A program made the translations under genes and the position numbers. A stretch of DNA of 32,000 bases from Candidatus Pacearchaeota archaeon (GTDB taxonomy: Archaea > Nanobdellota > Nanobdellia > Pacearchaeales > UBA284): positions 660,001 through 692,000 of the forward strand of contig CP061211.1 of NCBI GenBank assembly GCA_026016245.1, written 5' to 3'. The notes under the pieces are model-generated. The model had not been told where the DNA came from, did not search any database, and saw only the letters and a program-made list of their open reading frames with translations. Shown here piece by piece: positions 6,836-24,569 of the stretch; position 1 is the stretch's first letter, and each line of letters opens with the position of its first letter.

Positions 6836-6908
6836 GCCCCCATGGTGTAGAGGCCAAGCATCGGGCCCTCTCGAGGCTCAGACCCGAGTTCGAATCTCGG
6901 TGGGGGCA
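6836..6908 (+). tRNA. tRNA-Glu (anticodon CUC), 73 nt
   Basis: Acceptor GCCCCCA/TGGGGGC, D stem GTGT/GCAT, anticodon stem GGGCC/GGCTC with loop CTCTCGA, T arm CCGAG-TTCGAAT-CTCGG, discriminator A. Confidence 0.9.
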
Positions 6909-6914
6909 TTTCAA

Positions 6915-7085
6915 ATGAAAAAAATATTAATTAAGGTTTTAAGCATAATTCTTACAATCATACTTATTTTTTCCTTAGTTCTCTTAGCTGTTGGAACTCT
7001 TAATCCACTTTACTTTTGGATTATTTTAGCATTCTGCGCAGTAATAGCTTTTTTTGGAATTCCTAGATTACGTAAAAAGAAATAA
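6915..7085 (+). CDS. Small membrane protein (56 aa, two predicted TM helices)
   Basis: MKKILIKVLSIILTIILIFSLVLLAVGT...FWIILAFCAVIAFFGIPRLRKKK. I place the start at ATG-6915. The tracked GTG-6900 start lies inside tRNA-Glu. Confidence 0.5.
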   Translation: MKKILIKVLSIILTIILIFSLVLLAVGTLNPLYFWIILAFCAVIAFFGIPRLRKKK

Positions 7086-9905: not shown

Positions 9906-10029
9906 CCCTGCGTAGCTCAATGGTAGAGCACTCGGCTGTAGTCTTATGCTTTCCTAAAAAGAATGCATGAGGCACTCGCAGGTGCTCGCAGAACCCGGGG
10001 TGTTGGCGGTTCGAATCCGCCCGCAGGGA
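9906..10029 (+). tRNA. tRNA-Tyr (anticodon GUA) with C1:G72 and a 52-nt intron at the canonical 37/38 site
   Basis: Acceptor CCCTGCG/CGCAGGG (C1:G72 is the archaeal/eukaryal tRNA-Tyr hallmark), D stem GCTC/GAGC, anticodon stem CTCGG/CCGGG, anticodon GTA at 9938-9940, T arm GGCGG-TTCGAAT-CCGCC, discriminator A. The mature length would be 72 nt. Confidence 0.85.
9942..9993 (+). other. tRNA-Tyr intron (52 nt), bulge-helix-bulge-compatible
   Basis: A central 4-bp helix CTGT (9936-9939) / GCAG (9988-9991) is flanked by 3-nt bulges AG|T and AA|C. Internal helices are CTTATGC/GCATGAG and GCAC/GTGC. Confidence 0.65.
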
Positions 10030-10030
10030 C

Positions 10031-12691: not shown

Positions 12692-13732
12692 TTATTTGTT
12701 TTCTCCTAATATTGGAATAGTTTGTCTTGAAAACCAAAACAATTCACTTTCTATTTTCTTTAGAATCCCTTCTCTTGATAATCCATAAAAATTATTATTT
12801 TCTGTTATTTTTAATTTTTGACTCCAATATTTATAGAAATTAGTGGCATCATTTTGATAATGTACAGTTTCCCTTATAAATGGAATCCCCTCTTCTTTTT
12901 TTACAGGACCAAGACCAGCATTATAAGCAGAAAAACTTTCACGGAAATCTCCTTTCCTTGATTTGAAACAAAAGGCTAAATGTCTTGTTCCAGCATCTGT
13001 AGCAGCTTCTATATCAAAAGGAGTTTTTTTCAAATCCTCTTCACTCGCTGTTTTTAACCAGTTTTTGATTTCTCTTTTGCATATTGAATAAAGTTCTTCA
13101 GCTATCTTTTGATTTTTTTTATAAATTGAACGATAGTATTTTGCTGTCTCATCTTCTTCCCTTAGAAAAGCATTTATCGCCAAACTATGATAGCTAGAAG
13201 CATTTCTGTCATAAATTCTTGCTTTATAAAAACCCTCTGGCTCAAGTTCTTTAGGAACCTTTAGTCCGAGGTCTTTTGCTGTGTATGGCATTAATTGACA
13301 TGGTCCTAATGCAATTTTAGGAGAAATAGCAAATTGACTAAATTCAGATTCAAATCTAATCTTAGCGAAAACAGTTAAATTATCAATTGGCCACATATGT
13401 TGGTATTTTTTAACAGCTTTATTTATGTAAGGAATATAGGGTTTAGCTTTAGGGTATCTTTTTAAAAGCCCTTCCAAATCATACTGCTTGGACTCTTCTT
13501 TTAGAATCAAGAAAGTAATTCCTTTTTCTTCAACCTCTTCTTCTGAAAATTTTTCGTTTTCTAATTTCAACTCTTCTTGGATAGGTTCTTTTGTGAGATT
13601 ATTTATCTGATAAGTATTATAGAGAGTAATTGAGGATAAAAAAAGAAGAATTGTTCCAAAAAAAATATCTCGAAAAGAGATTTTTGAAAAGAAACTATTA
13701 TACATATTCCTTAGTTTTTCTTTTGTAATCAT
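12692..13732 (-). CDS. Membrane-anchored lytic transglycosylase (SLT / GH23-like domain)
   Basis: N-terminal TM helix (IFFGTILLFLSSITLYNTY). SLT signature series: RFESEFSQFAIS (catalytic E-S), GPCQLMPYTAKDLG (GLMQ-MP-TA equivalent), SAYNAGLGPV (AYNAG), RETVHYQ. Confidence 0.7.
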   Translation of the reverse strand: MITKEKLRNMYNSFFSKISFRDIFFGTILLFLSSITLYNTYQINNLTKEPIQEELKLENEKFSEEEVEEKGITFLILKEESKQYDLEGLLKRYPKAKPYIPYINKAVKKYQHMWPIDNLTVFAKIRFESEFSQFAISPKIALGPCQLMPYTAKDLGLKVPKELEPEGFYKARIYDRNASSYHSLAINAFLREEDETAKYYRSIYKKNQKIAEELYSICKREIKNWLKTASEEDLKKTPFDIEAATDAGTRHLAFCFKSRKGDFRESFSAYNAGLGPVKKEEGIPFIRETVHYQNDATNFYKYWSQKLKITENNNFYGLSREGILKKIESELFWFSRQTIPILGENK

Positions 13733-15597: not shown

Positions 15598-15616
15598 AAA
15601 TCTTTGAGTGCAAAAG

Positions 15617-15627
15617 CTTTTTAAAAT
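15617..15627. promoter_or_regulatory. Single central TATA element shared by the divergent presenilin-like gene and trpS
   Basis: CTTTTTAAAAT is centred at 15622, exactly 25 nt from ATG-15597 (-) and 25 nt from ATG-15647 (+). The whole spacer is 49 nt. Confidence 0.45.
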
Positions 15628-15646
15628 CTTTCCTCTTAAATTGCTT

Positions 15647-16792
15647 ATGAAAAAGAGGAAAGTCAAAGAGGGGATATTCAAAGTAACACCATGGGAAGTT
15701 TCTGGAAAAATCGATTATGATAAACTAATTAAAGAATTTGGATTAAATCCATTAAGATTCTTACCAAAACAATTTAACAAACTACCCTTATTTAGAAGAG
15801 GGATTGTTTTTGCTCATCGTGATTTTAAACAAATAGTGGAAGCTATACAAAAAAAGAAGAAATTTGTAATGATGACTGGATTAATGCCTTTTGGAAAATT
15901 TCACTTTGGGCATAAGGCAGTTGCAGATCAAATAATATTTTACCAGAGTTTAGGAGCAAAAATATATCTGGCTGTTGCAGATATTGAAGCATATAATACT
16001 AGAAATCCTAATATGGAAGAGTTAAGAGAGACAGCAATAAAAGAATATTTAACAAATTATATTGCTCTAGGTTTAAAACCAAAGAATTGTGACTTTTATT
16101 TTCAATCTCAAAGATCAAAAGACGGAAAAAAAGCTAATGCTTACTATAGTCTAGCTAATTTACTTGCAAGACATGTAACATTCAATGAATTTAAAGCAAT
16201 TTATGGTGAAATAAATCCAGGAAAAATGATTTCTGCTCTATTGCAGGCATCTGATATGTTACATCCACAACTTCCTGAATTTGAAGGTAAACCTTTGCCT
16301 GTTGTTGTTCCTGTAGGAGCTGATCAAGATCCTCATTTAAGATTAGCCAGAGATATAAGCCAGAGAATTAAAATTTACAAATTTACACAACTCAGTTCTA
16401 CTTATCTTAAATTTATCCCTGGATTAAAAGGTATTGATACAAAAATGTCAAGTTCAGATCCTAATTCTTATGTAGCTTTAACAGACTCGCCAAAACAAGT
16501 AGAAGAAAAAATAAAAAAGCATGCCTTTAGTGGCGGTAAAGGAAGTGTGGCAGAGCATAGAAAACTAGGAGGAAATCCAGATGTTGATGTTTCTTACCAA
16601 TATCTCAGAATGTTTTTTGAACCAGATGATAAAAAACTAAAGAAGATTCATGATGATTATAAATCTGGAAAACTTCTTACTAGTGAACTCAAAGAATATC
16701 TTATCAAAAAGATTAATGTTTTCTTAAAAGAACATCAAAGAAAAAGAAAACTTGCTGAAAAACAAGTTGATAAATTTATTTTTAAGGCTTAG
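15647..16792 (+). CDS. trpS: Tryptophanyl-tRNA synthetase, archaeal/eukaryotic type
   Basis: N-terminal FKVTPWEVSGKIDYDKLIKEFG, HIGH-type motif GKFHFGH, KMSKS-type motif TKMSSSDPNS. The C-terminal FFEPDDKKLKKI...LKEHQRKRKLAEKQVDKF closely resembles archaeal TrpRS as I remember it. Start placed at ATG-15647. Confidence 0.85.
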   Translation: MKKRKVKEGIFKVTPWEVSGKIDYDKLIKEFGLNPLRFLPKQFNKLPLFRRGIVFAHRDFKQIVEAIQKKKKFVMMTGLMPFGKFHFGHKAVADQIIFYQSLGAKIYLAVADIEAYNTRNPNMEELRETAIKEYLTNYIALGLKPKNCDFYFQSQRSKDGKKANAYYSLANLLARHVTFNEFKAIYGEINPGKMISALLQASDMLHPQLPEFEGKPLPVVVPVGADQDPHLRLARDISQRIKIYKFTQLSSTYLKFIPGLKGIDTKMSSSDPNSYVALTDSPKQVEEKIKKHAFSGGKGSVAEHRKLGGNPDVDVSYQYLRMFFEPDDKKLKKIHDDYKSGKLLTSELKEYLIKKINVFLKEHQRKRKLAEKQVDKFIFKA

Positions 16793-17415: not shown

Positions 17416-18018
17416 ATGATAAATTTCAGAAAAGATATTGTAAATATAGATTTAGAATGTACTGCTAGTGAAAAAGAGTTAGGTTCTATTTGTGATATTG
17501 GTGCTGTATTAATTGATAAAAATACCTTGGAAATAAAAAATGAATTTAGTTCGCTTATAAGACCCTATAAAATATATTTTGATCCAAGAGCTATGGCAGT
17601 ACATGGAATACCAAAAGAAGAATTAATGAAAGCACGCCCACTTGAGATGGTTCTTGATAATTTTCAATTATGGATTACTAGAGATTGTGAAAAGCAAAAT
17701 GAGAAACATGTTCACCTCTCTTCATGGGGTTCTTATTTTGATATACCTTACCTCATTGAAGCATACAAATTCTTGCATAGAGATTATCCATTTGATTATA
17801 AATATATGAATCTTAAGGATTTTATGAGGTATGATTGTGCTTTGACAGGAAAGCCATTTAAGGGTGGTTTAGGGAGAGCATCAAGAGTCCTTGAACTCCC
17901 ACAAGAATGGGAAAAACATAGAGCGTTGCCAGATGCAATCCAAGGAGCTTTAATTCTAAAAGCTTTAGTAGAAAGAAGATTAAAAAATAAGATTTCTAAA
18001 GAGTTTTTATCTCTATAA
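17416..18018 (+). CDS. DEDDh-type 3'-5' exonuclease (DnaQ/RNase T-like fold)
   Basis: ExoI VNIDLECT, ExoII-like SWGSYFDIPYL, ExoIII HRALPDA (H-x4-D). Confidence 0.65.
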   Translation: MINFRKDIVNIDLECTASEKELGSICDIGAVLIDKNTLEIKNEFSSLIRPYKIYFDPRAMAVHGIPKEELMKARPLEMVLDNFQLWITRDCEKQNEKHVHLSSWGSYFDIPYLIEAYKFLHRDYPFDYKYMNLKDFMRYDCALTGKPFKGGLGRASRVLELPQEWEKHRALPDAIQGALILKALVERRLKNKISKEFLSL

Positions 18019-18577
18019 TATCATGAAAATAAAAATTATTATCTGTATCATAGGACCATTCCAAAACTACATTTTTATAAGGAATTTTTCTAGCATGGTC
18101 TAAAAGATTTGTTATTTCTAAAGAAGATAACAGGTCTCTGTTCCCTTTAACTTCCACATCACAAATGTAAATTTTATCATCATATTTTGGATATTTATAA
18201 TAAACATCAACTTTTTTACCATCTGCTAAATCTCTCACAAAGCCTTCGACAGCTTCAATTATTATGCTATTTTCTAGAAGCATTAGATTGCCAGATTTTT
18301 CAAATTTCCACGCAGGATAAACTACAAAAATGCCTTTTCCTCTAAATTTTTTCTGAAATTTTTCTATTATTTTTGAAACTTCTTCTGTCTTAACATAGGC
18401 TGCAAACGGTAATGCCAATTCATCTTTTTTTATCTCAGGGGGTAAGCAACTTCTTATGCACCAGCCATGTTTTGTTTTTTTATTTAAATTGAGTTCACTA
18501 GCTTTTTTTATAATTTGCCAATCTCCATGCGGTAATGCCAATTCTTCTAATTTTAATATTCCTTCTAATTTATTCAT
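17996..18577 (-). CDS. Hypothetical protein (193 aa), possibly a stand-alone PEP/pyruvate-binding (PPDK_N-like ATP-grasp) fragment
   Basis: SIIIEAVEGFVRDLADGKKVDVYY and LLDHARKIPYKNVVLEWSYDTDNNFYFHDI resemble the ...IEAvwGLGe.vVsG.v.pD.y... and ...a.kiE..fg.pqDiEWa.d..g.lyiLQ segments of PPDK_N domains. This is a weak by-eye similarity only. Confidence 0.3.
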   Translation of the reverse strand: MNKLEGILKLEELALPHGDWQIIKKASELNLNKKTKHGWCIRSCLPPEIKKDELALPFAAYVKTEEVSKIIEKFQKKFRGKGIFVVYPAWKFEKSGNLMLLENSIIIEAVEGFVRDLADGKKVDVYYKYPKYDDKIYICDVEVKGNRDLLSSLEITNLLDHARKIPYKNVVLEWSYDTDNNFYFHDIIEIKTL

Positions 18578-19428
18578 TTTAAATATCCTATTTTTTTAAG
18601 TTGCTTCTTCATAAAATTTGCACCAAGATCCTGGCTATCTTTAAATTCACTTATTAATGTAGGATGCATTTTAAATTCTTTTATAAGTTCTGCGAACGGT
18701 TCAAAGTGTGGTAAAGCTTTTTTATCTTTAAATGGAGCATGAGATTTTTCACCCTTGTCCCCATAATAAACAGGATAAAAATGACAATGAAGATTTCTTA
18801 AAAATTTTTTTCCAAGTTCTTTTTCAATTTTTTCTAAAATTATCCTAAAATCTTTTTTAGTTTTCAAACTTCCAAAAGTTCTTGCATGCACATGTGCAAA
18901 ATCAATGCAGGGTATACATTTAGTCTCCTTGCATATTTGGATAATATGATCAAATGAACCTAATTGTGAAGTCTTACCCATTGTTTCGAGTGCAATTTTA
19001 GTTTTATATCCTAATTGTTTTGCTTTTTCATTTATTTTATTCAAGTTTTTGATGACTCTTCCGATTGGATCATTAACATTCATAAATCCGGGATGTAACA
19101 CAGCAGTTTTTGAATGCATTAAATCAGATAATTTAAGAGTCTTAAGCATCTCATTAAATGAATTTTTAATCACTTTCTTTTTATTGCTTGTTAAAACAAC
19201 ATAATAAGGAGAATGAACACTTAGCTGAACATCAAACTTCTTAGCATTTATTCCCATCTGCAAAGCATTTTGTTCTGAGGTTCTTGCGCCATACGTAAAC
19301 ATAATTTCCAGAGCATTCAATCCAATAGAATTTAACCATTCAGGACAATTTAATCTATTATTGATAAATTTTGAACTAAAAAAATTGGGGGGATTTCCGG
19401 AAGTACCTATTCTTATCATTTTAGACAT
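18574..19428 (-). CDS. AP endonuclease family 2 / xylose-isomerase-like TIM-barrel protein (endonuclease IV-like)
   Basis: Metal-ligand-like series in order: VHSPYY, LHPG, IALETMG, CIDFAHVHA, LHCHF. 284 aa. The first ATG (19428-19426) shares its A with the tRNA-Lys discriminator; an alternative ATG lies at 19419 (MIRIGTSGNP). Confidence 0.55.
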   Translation of the reverse strand: MSKMIRIGTSGNPPNFFSSKFINNRLNCPEWLNSIGLNALEIMFTYGARTSEQNALQMGINAKKFDVQLSVHSPYYVVLTSNKKKVIKNSFNEMLKTLKLSDLMHSKTAVLHPGFMNVNDPIGRVIKNLNKINEKAKQLGYKTKIALETMGKTSQLGSFDHIIQICKETKCIPCIDFAHVHARTFGSLKTKKDFRIILEKIEKELGKKFLRNLHCHFYPVYYGDKGEKSHAPFKDKKALPHFEPFAELIKEFKMHPTLISEFKDSQDLGANFMKKQLKKIGYLK

Positions 19429-19532
19429 GGGCCCGACGCGATTCGAACGCGCGACACCTTGGTTGCTTCAAAGCTTAGGCTTTGACCCTTGCTTATAAAA
19501 GCCAAGTGCTCTACCAACTGAGCTACGGGCCC
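19428..19532 (-). tRNA. tRNA-Lys (anticodon UUU) with a 32-nt intron at 37/38
   Basis: Acceptor GGGCCCG/CGGGCCC, D stem GCTC/GAGC, anticodon stem CTTGG/CCAAG, anticodon TTT (top 19499-19497), T arm GCGCG-TTCGAAT-CGCGT, discriminator A (19428). Mature length 73 nt. Confidence 0.85.
19464..19495 (-). other. tRNA-Lys intron (32 nt), bulge-helix-bulge-compatible
   Basis: A central helix CTTT (nt 32-35) / GAAG is flanked by 3-nt bulges TA|t and ca|A. Confidence 0.6.
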
Positions 19533-19555: not shown

Positions 19556-19563
19556 TTTATAAA
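19556..19563. promoter_or_regulatory. Single palindromic TATA (TTTATAAA) shared by tRNA-Lys (-) and the small membrane gene at 19585 (+)
   Basis: It is centred at 19559.5, 27.5 nt from the tRNA 5' end (19532) and 25.5 nt from ATG-19585. The total spacer is 52 nt. Confidence 0.45.
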
Positions 19564-19584
19564 GTTTCTTATTAAAATATAGAG

Positions 19585-19803
19585 ATGGAACAAGCAACTT
19601 TAATGATTTTAATTTTAATTGCACTAGCTTGGACAATACCTTGGAAAGGTGTTGCTTTATGGAGAGCATCAAAAAAGAATCATCTGGTTTGGTTTATTGT
19701 TCTTCTTTTAGTAAACACTCTAGCTATTCTTGAAATCCTCTACATTTTTATATTTTCTAAAGAAAAGAAAAAACAGAAGAAAAGGAAGAGAAGAAAAAGG
19801 TAG
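19585..19803 (+). CDS. Small membrane protein (72 aa), DUF5652-like, with a poly-Lys/Arg tail
   Basis: Two TM helices; WKGVALWRASKKNHLVWFIVLLLVNTLAILEILYIF resembles the DUF5652 family as I recall it. The tail is KEKKKQKKRKRRKR. Confidence 0.45.
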   Translation: MEQATLMILILIALAWTIPWKGVALWRASKKNHLVWFIVLLLVNTLAILEILYIFIFSKEKKKQKKRKRRKR

Positions 19804-23622: not shown

Positions 23623-24569
23623 TTTCTTTTTTTTATTTCTTGAATATAATCTTGGGCTGATATTGCGGCTGTGGCGCCTTGAGCTGCTGCAGTTAGGATT
23701 TGTTTTAATTTTCTGTTTGTTATGTCACCTGCAGCAAATATTCCTTTAATGTTTGTTTTCATTTCTTCATCTACAACAATAAAACCACCCCCATCTAATT
23801 TTATATCTAATTGTTTTACAAGTTCTGTTGAGGGAGTCATACCTATTTCAATTATTATGCCCTGAATTGGGAGCTCTTTTTTCTGTCCAGTTTCTTTGAA
23901 TTCCTTATCCTGCCATTCAACTTCTTCTATTTCTATTGCATTGACAAATTCTTTTCCCTTGATTTCATTGACTTTATGACTGCTTAAAATTTCAAGCTTT
24001 TCTTTACCTTCTTTTTTTAACTGCTCTAATCTGAATGCTTTTGCTCGAGGTTTCTTTTCTATATCTATCATATAAATCTTGTTAGCATATTTTAACATTA
24101 ATAATGCTGCAATTACTGCTGAATCTCCTCCTCCAATTATTGCTACATCTTTGTCCTTAAAAAAAGGAGCATCACATAATACACAATAGGTAATCCCCTT
24201 TCCCTTAAACTCTTGTTCTCCTTTAATGCCTAGCTCTCTCCTTTTGCTGCCTAAAGCAAGAATTAGTGTTTTTCCCAAGTAAGTGTCTTTATTTGTTTTT
24301 ATTACAAATTCATTTTCTACTTCTTTAATTTCTAATATTTCTTCCTCTATTTTGATGTCTATGGCTTGAACTTGCTCATACATCTTTTTTGCCAAATCCA
24401 TGCCAGAAATTTCCTTAAATCCAGGATAGTTTTCTATTAAAGGAGTTTCAACTACATAGCCTCCTACTTGTTTTCCTACAAGAAGAGTATTGAGTTTTGA
24501 TCTTTCTGCATATAAGGCTGCTGCAAGTCCTGCTGGTCCTATGCCCAAAATAATTAAGTCATATATCAT
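23619..24569 (-). CDS. trxB: Thioredoxin-reductase-like FAD-dependent disulfide oxidoreductase (low-Mr TrxR fold) lacking the NADPH HRR motif
   Basis: FAD motif YDLIILGIGPAGLAAALYA, redox CxxC in YCVLCDAPFF, second dinucleotide motif VAIIGGGDSAV, C-terminal IFAAGDI. The position of E. coli LIHRRDGFRA reads MIDIEKKPRA. Confidence 0.8.
   Translation of the reverse strand: MIYDLIILGIGPAGLAAALYAERSKLNTLLVGKQVGGYVVETPLIENYPGFKEISGMDLAKKMYEQVQAIDIKIEEEILEIKEVENEFVIKTNKDTYLGKTLILALGSKRRELGIKGEQEFKGKGITYCVLCDAPFFKDKDVAIIGGGDSAVIAALLMLKYANKIYMIDIEKKPRAKAFRLEQLKKEGKEKLEILSSHKVNEIKGKEFVNAIEIEEVEWQDKEFKETGQKKELPIQGIIIEIGMTPSTELVKQLDIKLDGGGFIVVDEEMKTNIKGIFAAGDITNRKLKQILTAAAQGATAAISAQDYIQEIKKRK

Follow-up and report, generated by a model that had tools for sequence, protein, structure and literature searches.

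Animal mitochondrial tRNA punctuation was reportedly described by Ojala, Montoya and Attardi in 1981. Among archaea, Kroemer and Arndt are said to have found in 1991 that a tRNA is co-transcribed with ribosomal protein genes in the tRNA-Leu/L18e (S9) operon of Haloarcula marismortui. The closest documented cases to the locus presented here come from two other archaea. In Thermococcus kodakarensis, the TKt3 tRNA-Lys is co-transcribed with TK0306, as observed by dRNA-seq, and the 5'-UTR has a length of 159 nt (PMC4247193). In the tRNA-Val/sRNA8 dicistron of Nanoarchaeum equitans, an RNase Z cut was proposed to make the 5' end of the downstream RNA (PMC3491384). tRNA-mRNA co-transcripts are already known in archaea, and the layout analyzed in this study is of this known kind. 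A literature search for leaderless or tRNA transcripts in Pacearchaeota found nothing.

The window, which is the whole 32,000-nt stretch of DNA that was analyzed, belongs to a 710,724-bp single-contig archaeal genome (G000). On its minus strand, an endonuclease IV-like coding sequence lies directly behind a tRNA-Lys(UUU) gene, with neither a promoter nor a terminator between them. The locus probably represents a clean example of an ordinary tRNA-headed operon, in which the tRNA-Lys promoter drives the endonuclease gene and a following 193-aa gene, RNase Z releases the mRNA and translation starts at position 19419. The host genome yields profile matches to GatE, archaeal PheRS and aCPSF1. Its 16S 3' end retains the anti-SD sequence, and an SD-like motif is found at only 69 of 369 confident starts. 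AAA is typical just before the start codons, and A occupies position -3 in 80% of cases. Upstream of operon-leading genes, TATA elements cluster sharply at -29/-30 relative to the ATG, which indicates that many mRNAs of G000 are leaderless. Start contexts were scored with a matrix built from the starts of G000 and promoters with a position weight matrix (PWM) trained on the leaderless promoters of G000 (training-site median of 13 bits and 5th percentile of 5.6), and both matrices depend on ORF calls made within the same analysis. A sigma-70 promoter and terminator scan was set aside, as its model is not applicable to archaea.

The tRNA gene spans positions 19532-19428 (minus strand; 59.9 bits with Rfam RF00005) and is composed of exon 1 (tRNA positions 1-37; 19496-19532), a 32-nt intron at the canonical 37/38 position (19464-19495) and exon 2 (19428-19463), which ends at A73 (19428). 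The intron, which the initial annotation did not mention, appears as an Rfam insertion in the anticodon loop and has a bulge-helix-bulge-like junction. The sequence allows a 4-bp central helix (C32-U35 with intron GAAG) and 3-nt bulges to be drawn, and the MFE fold picks a shifted register. Removal of the intron restores a canonical 73-nt tRNA, which ARAGORN identifies as tRNA-Lys(ttt) and which is nearly identical to the intronless gene of the congener G002. The corresponding genes of G001 and G009 are also devoid of an intron. A tRNA-SeC call by ARAGORN at this locus was rejected because the intron was misplaced and the spliced gene is tRNA-Lys(UUU).

Genes for RNase Z (G000:602090-602980), a homologue of the CCA-adding enzyme, EndA and a member of the RNase J family are found in G000. 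A gene resembling RNase P RNA was also matched (E value of 8e-20, below the gathering score), and a Nanoarchaeum-like scheme of leaderless tRNAs without RNase P was rejected on the basis of this match. Archaeal RNase Z needs a mature 5' end and cuts directly 3' of the discriminator in CCA-less pre-tRNAs, including those with introns (PMC7479834). The initial annotation drew attention to the absence of both an encoded CCA and an oligo-T tract behind tRNA-Lys. The latter part stands, as the longest T-run in the 25 nt past A73 is 1, compared with T4-T5 after tRNA-Thr, tRNA-Gln and tRNA-Tyr, but the former is ordinary, given that CCA is encoded by no tRNA in the whole of G000. tRNA-Lys(UUU) is apparently the sole intact lysine tRNA of the genome and must therefore be matured.

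A tRNA-Lys(CUU) gene (G000:C1:87029-87138, plus strand; locus L327) was missed by both ARAGORN and Rfam. Its promoter, anticodon arm, intron and 3' half are intact, and 8 of its first 13 nt differ from those of congeners, so that the acceptor and D stems cannot pair. This gene, which still lies 7 nt before a conserved toprim-like gene, is a pseudogene or an assembly error; a trans-splicing donor fragment was looked for and none was found. The introns of tRNA-Lys(CUU) (G000:C1:87066-87102) and tRNA-Arg(UCU) (23774-23881) have nearly the same opening sequence, and in G019 the tRNA-Lys(UUU) intron is similar to those of tRNA-Lys(CUU) in G001 and G002. These resemblances suggest that introns may move between tRNA genes. 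Another intron-containing tRNA (G000:C1:272307-272420, minus strand) is read by ARAGORN as Ile with the anticodon UAU, which archaea rarely have, and tRNA-Tyr(GUA) of the window (9906-10030, plus strand) carries a 52-nt intron.

At the junction between the tRNA and the coding sequence, the 3' acceptor strand CGGGCCC extends to 19429, and A73 (19428) doubles as the first base of an in-frame ATG (ATG1), exactly as the initial annotation had read. ATG1 opens a 284-codon ORF (18574-19428), and a second ATG (ATG2) sits 9 nt after A73 at 19419. The zero spacer claimed for this junction is an artefact of taking the longest ORF; the gene call of the sequence collection (P0001) is the 281-aa product from 19419. 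The start-context score is +3.0 for ATG2 (60th percentile) and -6.5 for ATG1, a value as low as which occurs in 0.3% of the 369 starts. CCC, which precedes ATG1, is found before none of these starts. The only close orthologue, in G009 (80% amino-acid identity), also resides behind tRNA-Lys(UUU). Its spacer is one base longer and places ATG2 10 nt past A73; as a result, A73-TG opens a 14-codon out-of-frame ORF and the protein can be made only from the second ATG. Moreover, the near-identical trailer of G019 (A-TGTCTA) is not followed by any gene on the same strand, indicating that this ATG can be present in the trailer without the gene. The N-termini of the endonuclease family vary, with 3-12 residues before the conserved Gly, and the alignment cannot choose between the two ATGs.

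The overlap between an ATG and A73 does not exceed chance. A73-T-G is present in 5 of the 42 tRNAs of G000, and the chance of at least one in-frame A73-TG among 14 tRNA-led genes is ~0.43 (~0.10 for at least two). The second in-frame case in G000 is found between tRNA-Glu(UUC) (G000:C1:270983-271055, minus strand; locus L278) and AMMECR1, and the homologues of AMMECR1 use the second ATG as their start. What precedes AMMECR1 in G002 resembles a degenerate tRNA-Glu 3' end. In four relatives, an ORF starts 7-19 nt downstream of 23 of 126 tRNAs and less than 7 nt downstream of none. The frame loss in the G009 orthologue and the anomalous context speak against A73 as the real start codon: it is very unlikely that translation truly begins at this ATG, and the start codon without a gap is almost certainly coincidental. 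For start codons beside tRNAs in such genomes, longest-ORF calling is to be avoided.

The promoter of the tRNA is a BRE-TATA element at 19556-19571 (minus strand), which constitutes the best PWM site (14.7 bits) and is conserved in G009 (15.0 bits). Its palindromic TATA box (19563-19556) ends 23 nt before G1 of the tRNA, with position 19563 located 31 nt before G1, and most tRNAs of G000 are preceded by a TATA box at -31/-30. In archaea, ~23 bp separate the TATA box from the initiation site downstream (PMC4247193), a distance by which transcription would start at G1 or slightly before it. No good promoter site other than the TATA box at 19563 was found. The PWM detected no promoter-like site inside tRNA-Lys (best score of -2.1 bits), and the position expected for a leaderless gene, -26 to -32 before the endonuclease start, scored -24 bits or worse. 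No terminator was found between tRNA-Lys and the coding sequence. Because the only promoter is the tRNA TATA and no terminator follows, the endonuclease gene is likely to be transcribed together with tRNA-Lys and freed by RNase Z. On the opposite strand, a divergent DUF5652 gene (19585-19803, plus strand) begins 29 nt from the palindromic TATA box. The box (19556-19563) forms a shared bidirectional core promoter, 31 nt from the tRNA G1 and 29 nt from the DUF5652 ATG, and both the 53-nt spacing between the tRNA and the DUF5652 ATG and the box position are conserved in G001 and G006.

In the proposed mechanism, transcription would begin from the TATA box at 19563 and, in the absence of a terminator, read through into the endonuclease IV-like gene and on into the 193-aa gene coupled to it. 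RNase P would trim any short 5' leader, and EndA would remove the intron. RNase Z would cut after A73 (19428/19427), a cut site known from other archaea, and the CCA enzyme would complete the tRNA. The 3' product, an mRNA, would carry a 5'-monophosphate and a leader of 8 nt derived from the tRNA trailer (19420-19427, minus strand); the 7-nt leader given by the initial annotation is corrected to these 8 nt (19427-19420). The trailer lacks an SD motif and ends in the genome-typical AAA. A leader of 8 nt qualifies as leaderless by the definition of PMC4247193, which would apply to the predicted mRNA. Translation would start from the AUG at 19419, as in many leaderless or short-leader messages of G000, and the ATG at A73 would be a coincidence of the common A73-U trailer without any role. 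The two-gene cassette would occupy the interval from tRNA-Lys to trpS as a variable insert and make use of the tRNA promoter. Transcription from the tRNA promoter without room or signal for a separate one, release of the downstream mRNA by RNase Z and translation from the second ATG had all been put forward in the initial annotation, and the present evidence argues for each of them.

Translation could instead take place mainly on the intact precursor from ATG2, with the folded tRNA as a protective 5' UTR and the RNase Z cut leading to decay. The RNase J family protein of G000 might degrade the 5'-monophosphate product and leave translation mostly to the unprocessed precursor, in which structure prediction leaves the A and U of AUG2 unpaired, and the TK0306 mRNA of T. 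kodakarensis carries its tRNA-Lys in the 5'-UTR (PMC4247193). However, initiation would have to occur internally, behind a folded tRNA and without an obvious signal, as no SD motif precedes ATG2, and the apparent floor of 6-7 nt in the spacing fits a minimal free leader. Translation on the intact precursor is an unlikely alternative to the RNase Z-released mRNA.

A promoter of the gene's own inside the tRNA, acting without any processing, is improbable. A TATA-like run is located at the anticodon/intron junction (TTTTATAA, 19500-19493), but this site scores -2.1 bits without a BRE, compared with a 5th percentile of 5.6 for real sites, and the intron is missing from G009. The T-loop, at -28, would lie near -29 for spacers of ~10 nt and scores -24. 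Archaea commonly have internal start sites (644 in PMC4247193), yet the spacers behind the tRNAs of G000 range over 6-16 nt, in contrast to the sharp -29/-30 TATA spacing of leaderless genes. The switch envisaged in the initial annotation, in which the AUG at A73 yields a protein extended by MSK from the unprocessed precursor and is lost when the tRNA matures, so that the two fates are exclusive, is highly improbable: ATG1 is in frame without a stop, has a second in-frame counterpart at tRNA-Glu/AMMECR1 and would give a 7-residue N-terminus within the family range, but its frame is lost in the orthologue, its context is in the worst percentile, it abuts the 7-bp acceptor stem, two in-frame cases arise by chance at ~0.10 with AMMECR1 homologues starting at ATG2, and the need to mature the apparently only intact tRNA-Lys argues against sacrificing it. 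The RNase Z-released message that starts at ATG2 is preferred over these readings.

The first gene of the operon (18574-19419, minus strand) encodes an endonuclease IV-like TIM-barrel protein of 281 aa from the ATG at 19419. The protein matches PF01261 (AP_endonuc_2) with an E value of 8e-23 and 81.8 bits (cut-off of 31.1) and yields profile matches to solved endonuclease IV structures in the PDB. The trinuclear metal site of E. coli endonuclease IV is formed by His69, His109, Glu145, Asp179, His182, His216, Asp229, His231 and Glu261. A 36-row alignment of the endonuclease IV-like protein shows no variation at H69, H109, E145, D173, H176, H213, E224, H227 and E258. Glu seems to replace Asp229, and the C-terminal ligands were paired up solely from the order of the motifs. 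A literature search for the Nfo ligand list found nothing. Like endonuclease IV (Nfo), the protein of the window is a TIM barrel, and its His, Glu and Asp residues appear to lie at the expected motif positions. Unlike Nfo, it falls below the TIGR00587 cut-off (60.9 bits versus 129.65) and belongs to a distinct clade that is distributed across DPANN archaea and some Planctomycetota. By its sequence, the gene product is an endonuclease IV-like protein of the DNA-repair type with putative activity. A total of 122 homologues were found, and G000 contains a paralogue at 336054 (33% identity) that is widespread in the family. A family-wide linkage of this endonuclease clade to tRNAs was rejected, given that a tRNA lies just upstream at only 1 of 83 homologous loci (G009).

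The second gene (17996-18577, minus strand) encodes 193 aa of an unknown family, with no match in Pfam or NCBIfam, and overlaps the endonuclease gene by 4 nt (ATGA). It also follows the endonuclease orthologue in G009 (74% identity) and is likely the last gene of the transcript. Farther along the window, a 346-aa ORF (12692-13732, minus strand) displays weak matches to lytic transglycosylase models, here in an archaeon.

The convergent trpS gene (15608-16792, plus strand; Pfam tRNA-synt_1b) provides the fixed far border of the tRNA-Lys-trpS interval, which is a variable slot that holds different genes in different relatives. In G001, G002 and G019, tRNA-Lys converges directly on trpS. In G016, a different 130-aa gene is located 10 nt behind tRNA-Lys, and in G000 and G009, the endonuclease and 193-aa cassette occupies the slot. 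A comparison of the junction in related genomes, which had been recommended, gave a mixed outcome: no same-strand gene is present in G001/G002 and G019, and the 10-nt distance from A73 to the ATG is kept in G009 and G016. The endonuclease clade of the cassette was detected in only 2 of the 24 family genomes searched (G000 and G009). Between these two, the endonuclease is 80% and the 193-aa protein 74% identical, compared with 63-66% for vertical genes between genera, and the cassette DNA is 79.6% identical over 1472 nt. This excess over vertical genes suggests lateral exchange of the cassette or mis-binning of the G009 contig. The G009 locus lies on a 9-kb contig, and its trpS looks nearer to the type of the G000 genus (81% versus 70%). 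The locus may be recombined or mis-binned; it is still an orthologous locus that is 20% diverged. The family contains two TrpRS types (L034 versus L059/L032), with ~82% and 45% identity to the TrpRS of the window, and in G009 the tRNA-Lys resembles that of its own genus and the TrpRS is of the other type. An integrase/att-site origin of the insert was not supported by a flanking duplication of the tRNA 3' end or by an integrase: the last 25 nt of tRNA-Lys recur only in the tRNA-Lys(CUU) gene ~590 kb away, and profile searches matched no integrase among the four ORFs between the tRNA and trpS.

The arrangement is frequent in G000, where 14 of 42 tRNAs are followed by a same-strand ATG ORF 6-16 nt past N73; a random intergenic position gives 10% (binomial p of 5e-5). 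Ordinary CDS-to-CDS coupling in G000 amounts to 35%, and tRNAs therefore behave as any first cistron of a compact genome. tRNA-led ORFs are similarly found in G002 (11/33) and G016 (8/33), compared with 1/26 and 3/34 in genomes of other families, a difference that the Fisher p overstates because kin are not independent. About one-quarter to one-third of the tRNAs in the lineage lead a protein gene at 6-19 nt. The tRNA-led genes of G000 include ones with Pfam matches to L37ae, RNase HII, AMMECR1 and AlkD, one for an alpha/beta hydrolase and one with a weak match to the L18e family. Within the window, at 6836-7085 (plus strand), tRNA-Glu(CUC) leads a 56-aa hydrophobic ORF 7 nt later.

It is conceivable, although doubtful, that tRNAs in this Pacearchaeota family act systematically as promoter-plus-processing modules, that an RNase Z cut is needed to uncover a 5' end with a short leader before translation of the genes behind them (ribosomal protein genes included) and that the tRNA-Lys trailer is a socket for acquired genes ~10 nt downstream. 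If RNA evidence confirmed the tRNA-headed operon, mRNA 5' ends would be produced routinely by RNase Z in these uncultured archaea, and acquired genes would find a simple route to expression in tRNA trailers.

Among known systems, mitochondrial punctuation, to which the initial annotation likened the locus, resembles it loosely at the tRNA 3' side, where an RNase Z cut would define the mRNA 5' end. The likeness fails for a flush junction and for a long polycistron: the best-supported start lies 9 nt after A73, tRNA-Lys is preceded by its own TATA box at -31 and leads a unit of two genes, which runs up to a convergent gene, and the 3' end of the mRNA is not set by any tRNA farther downstream. 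As in the Haloarcula operon, G000 has a tRNA-Leu 7 nt before an L18e-like gene, whereas its tRNA-Lys carries a variable accessory cassette rather than a conserved operon. The N. equitans tRNA-Val/sRNA8 pair shares a reduced DPANN genome and a proposed RNase Z-made 5' end, but its downstream RNA is a C/D box sRNA instead of an mRNA, and N. equitans is devoid of RNase P, while G000 has an RNase P RNA-like gene. In TK0306, as at the present locus, an archaeal tRNA-Lys heads a protein-coding transcript. The co-transcript is documented in T. kodakarensis and predicted in G000, where the leader would comprise only 8 nt after A73 and one-third of the tRNAs are arranged in this way.
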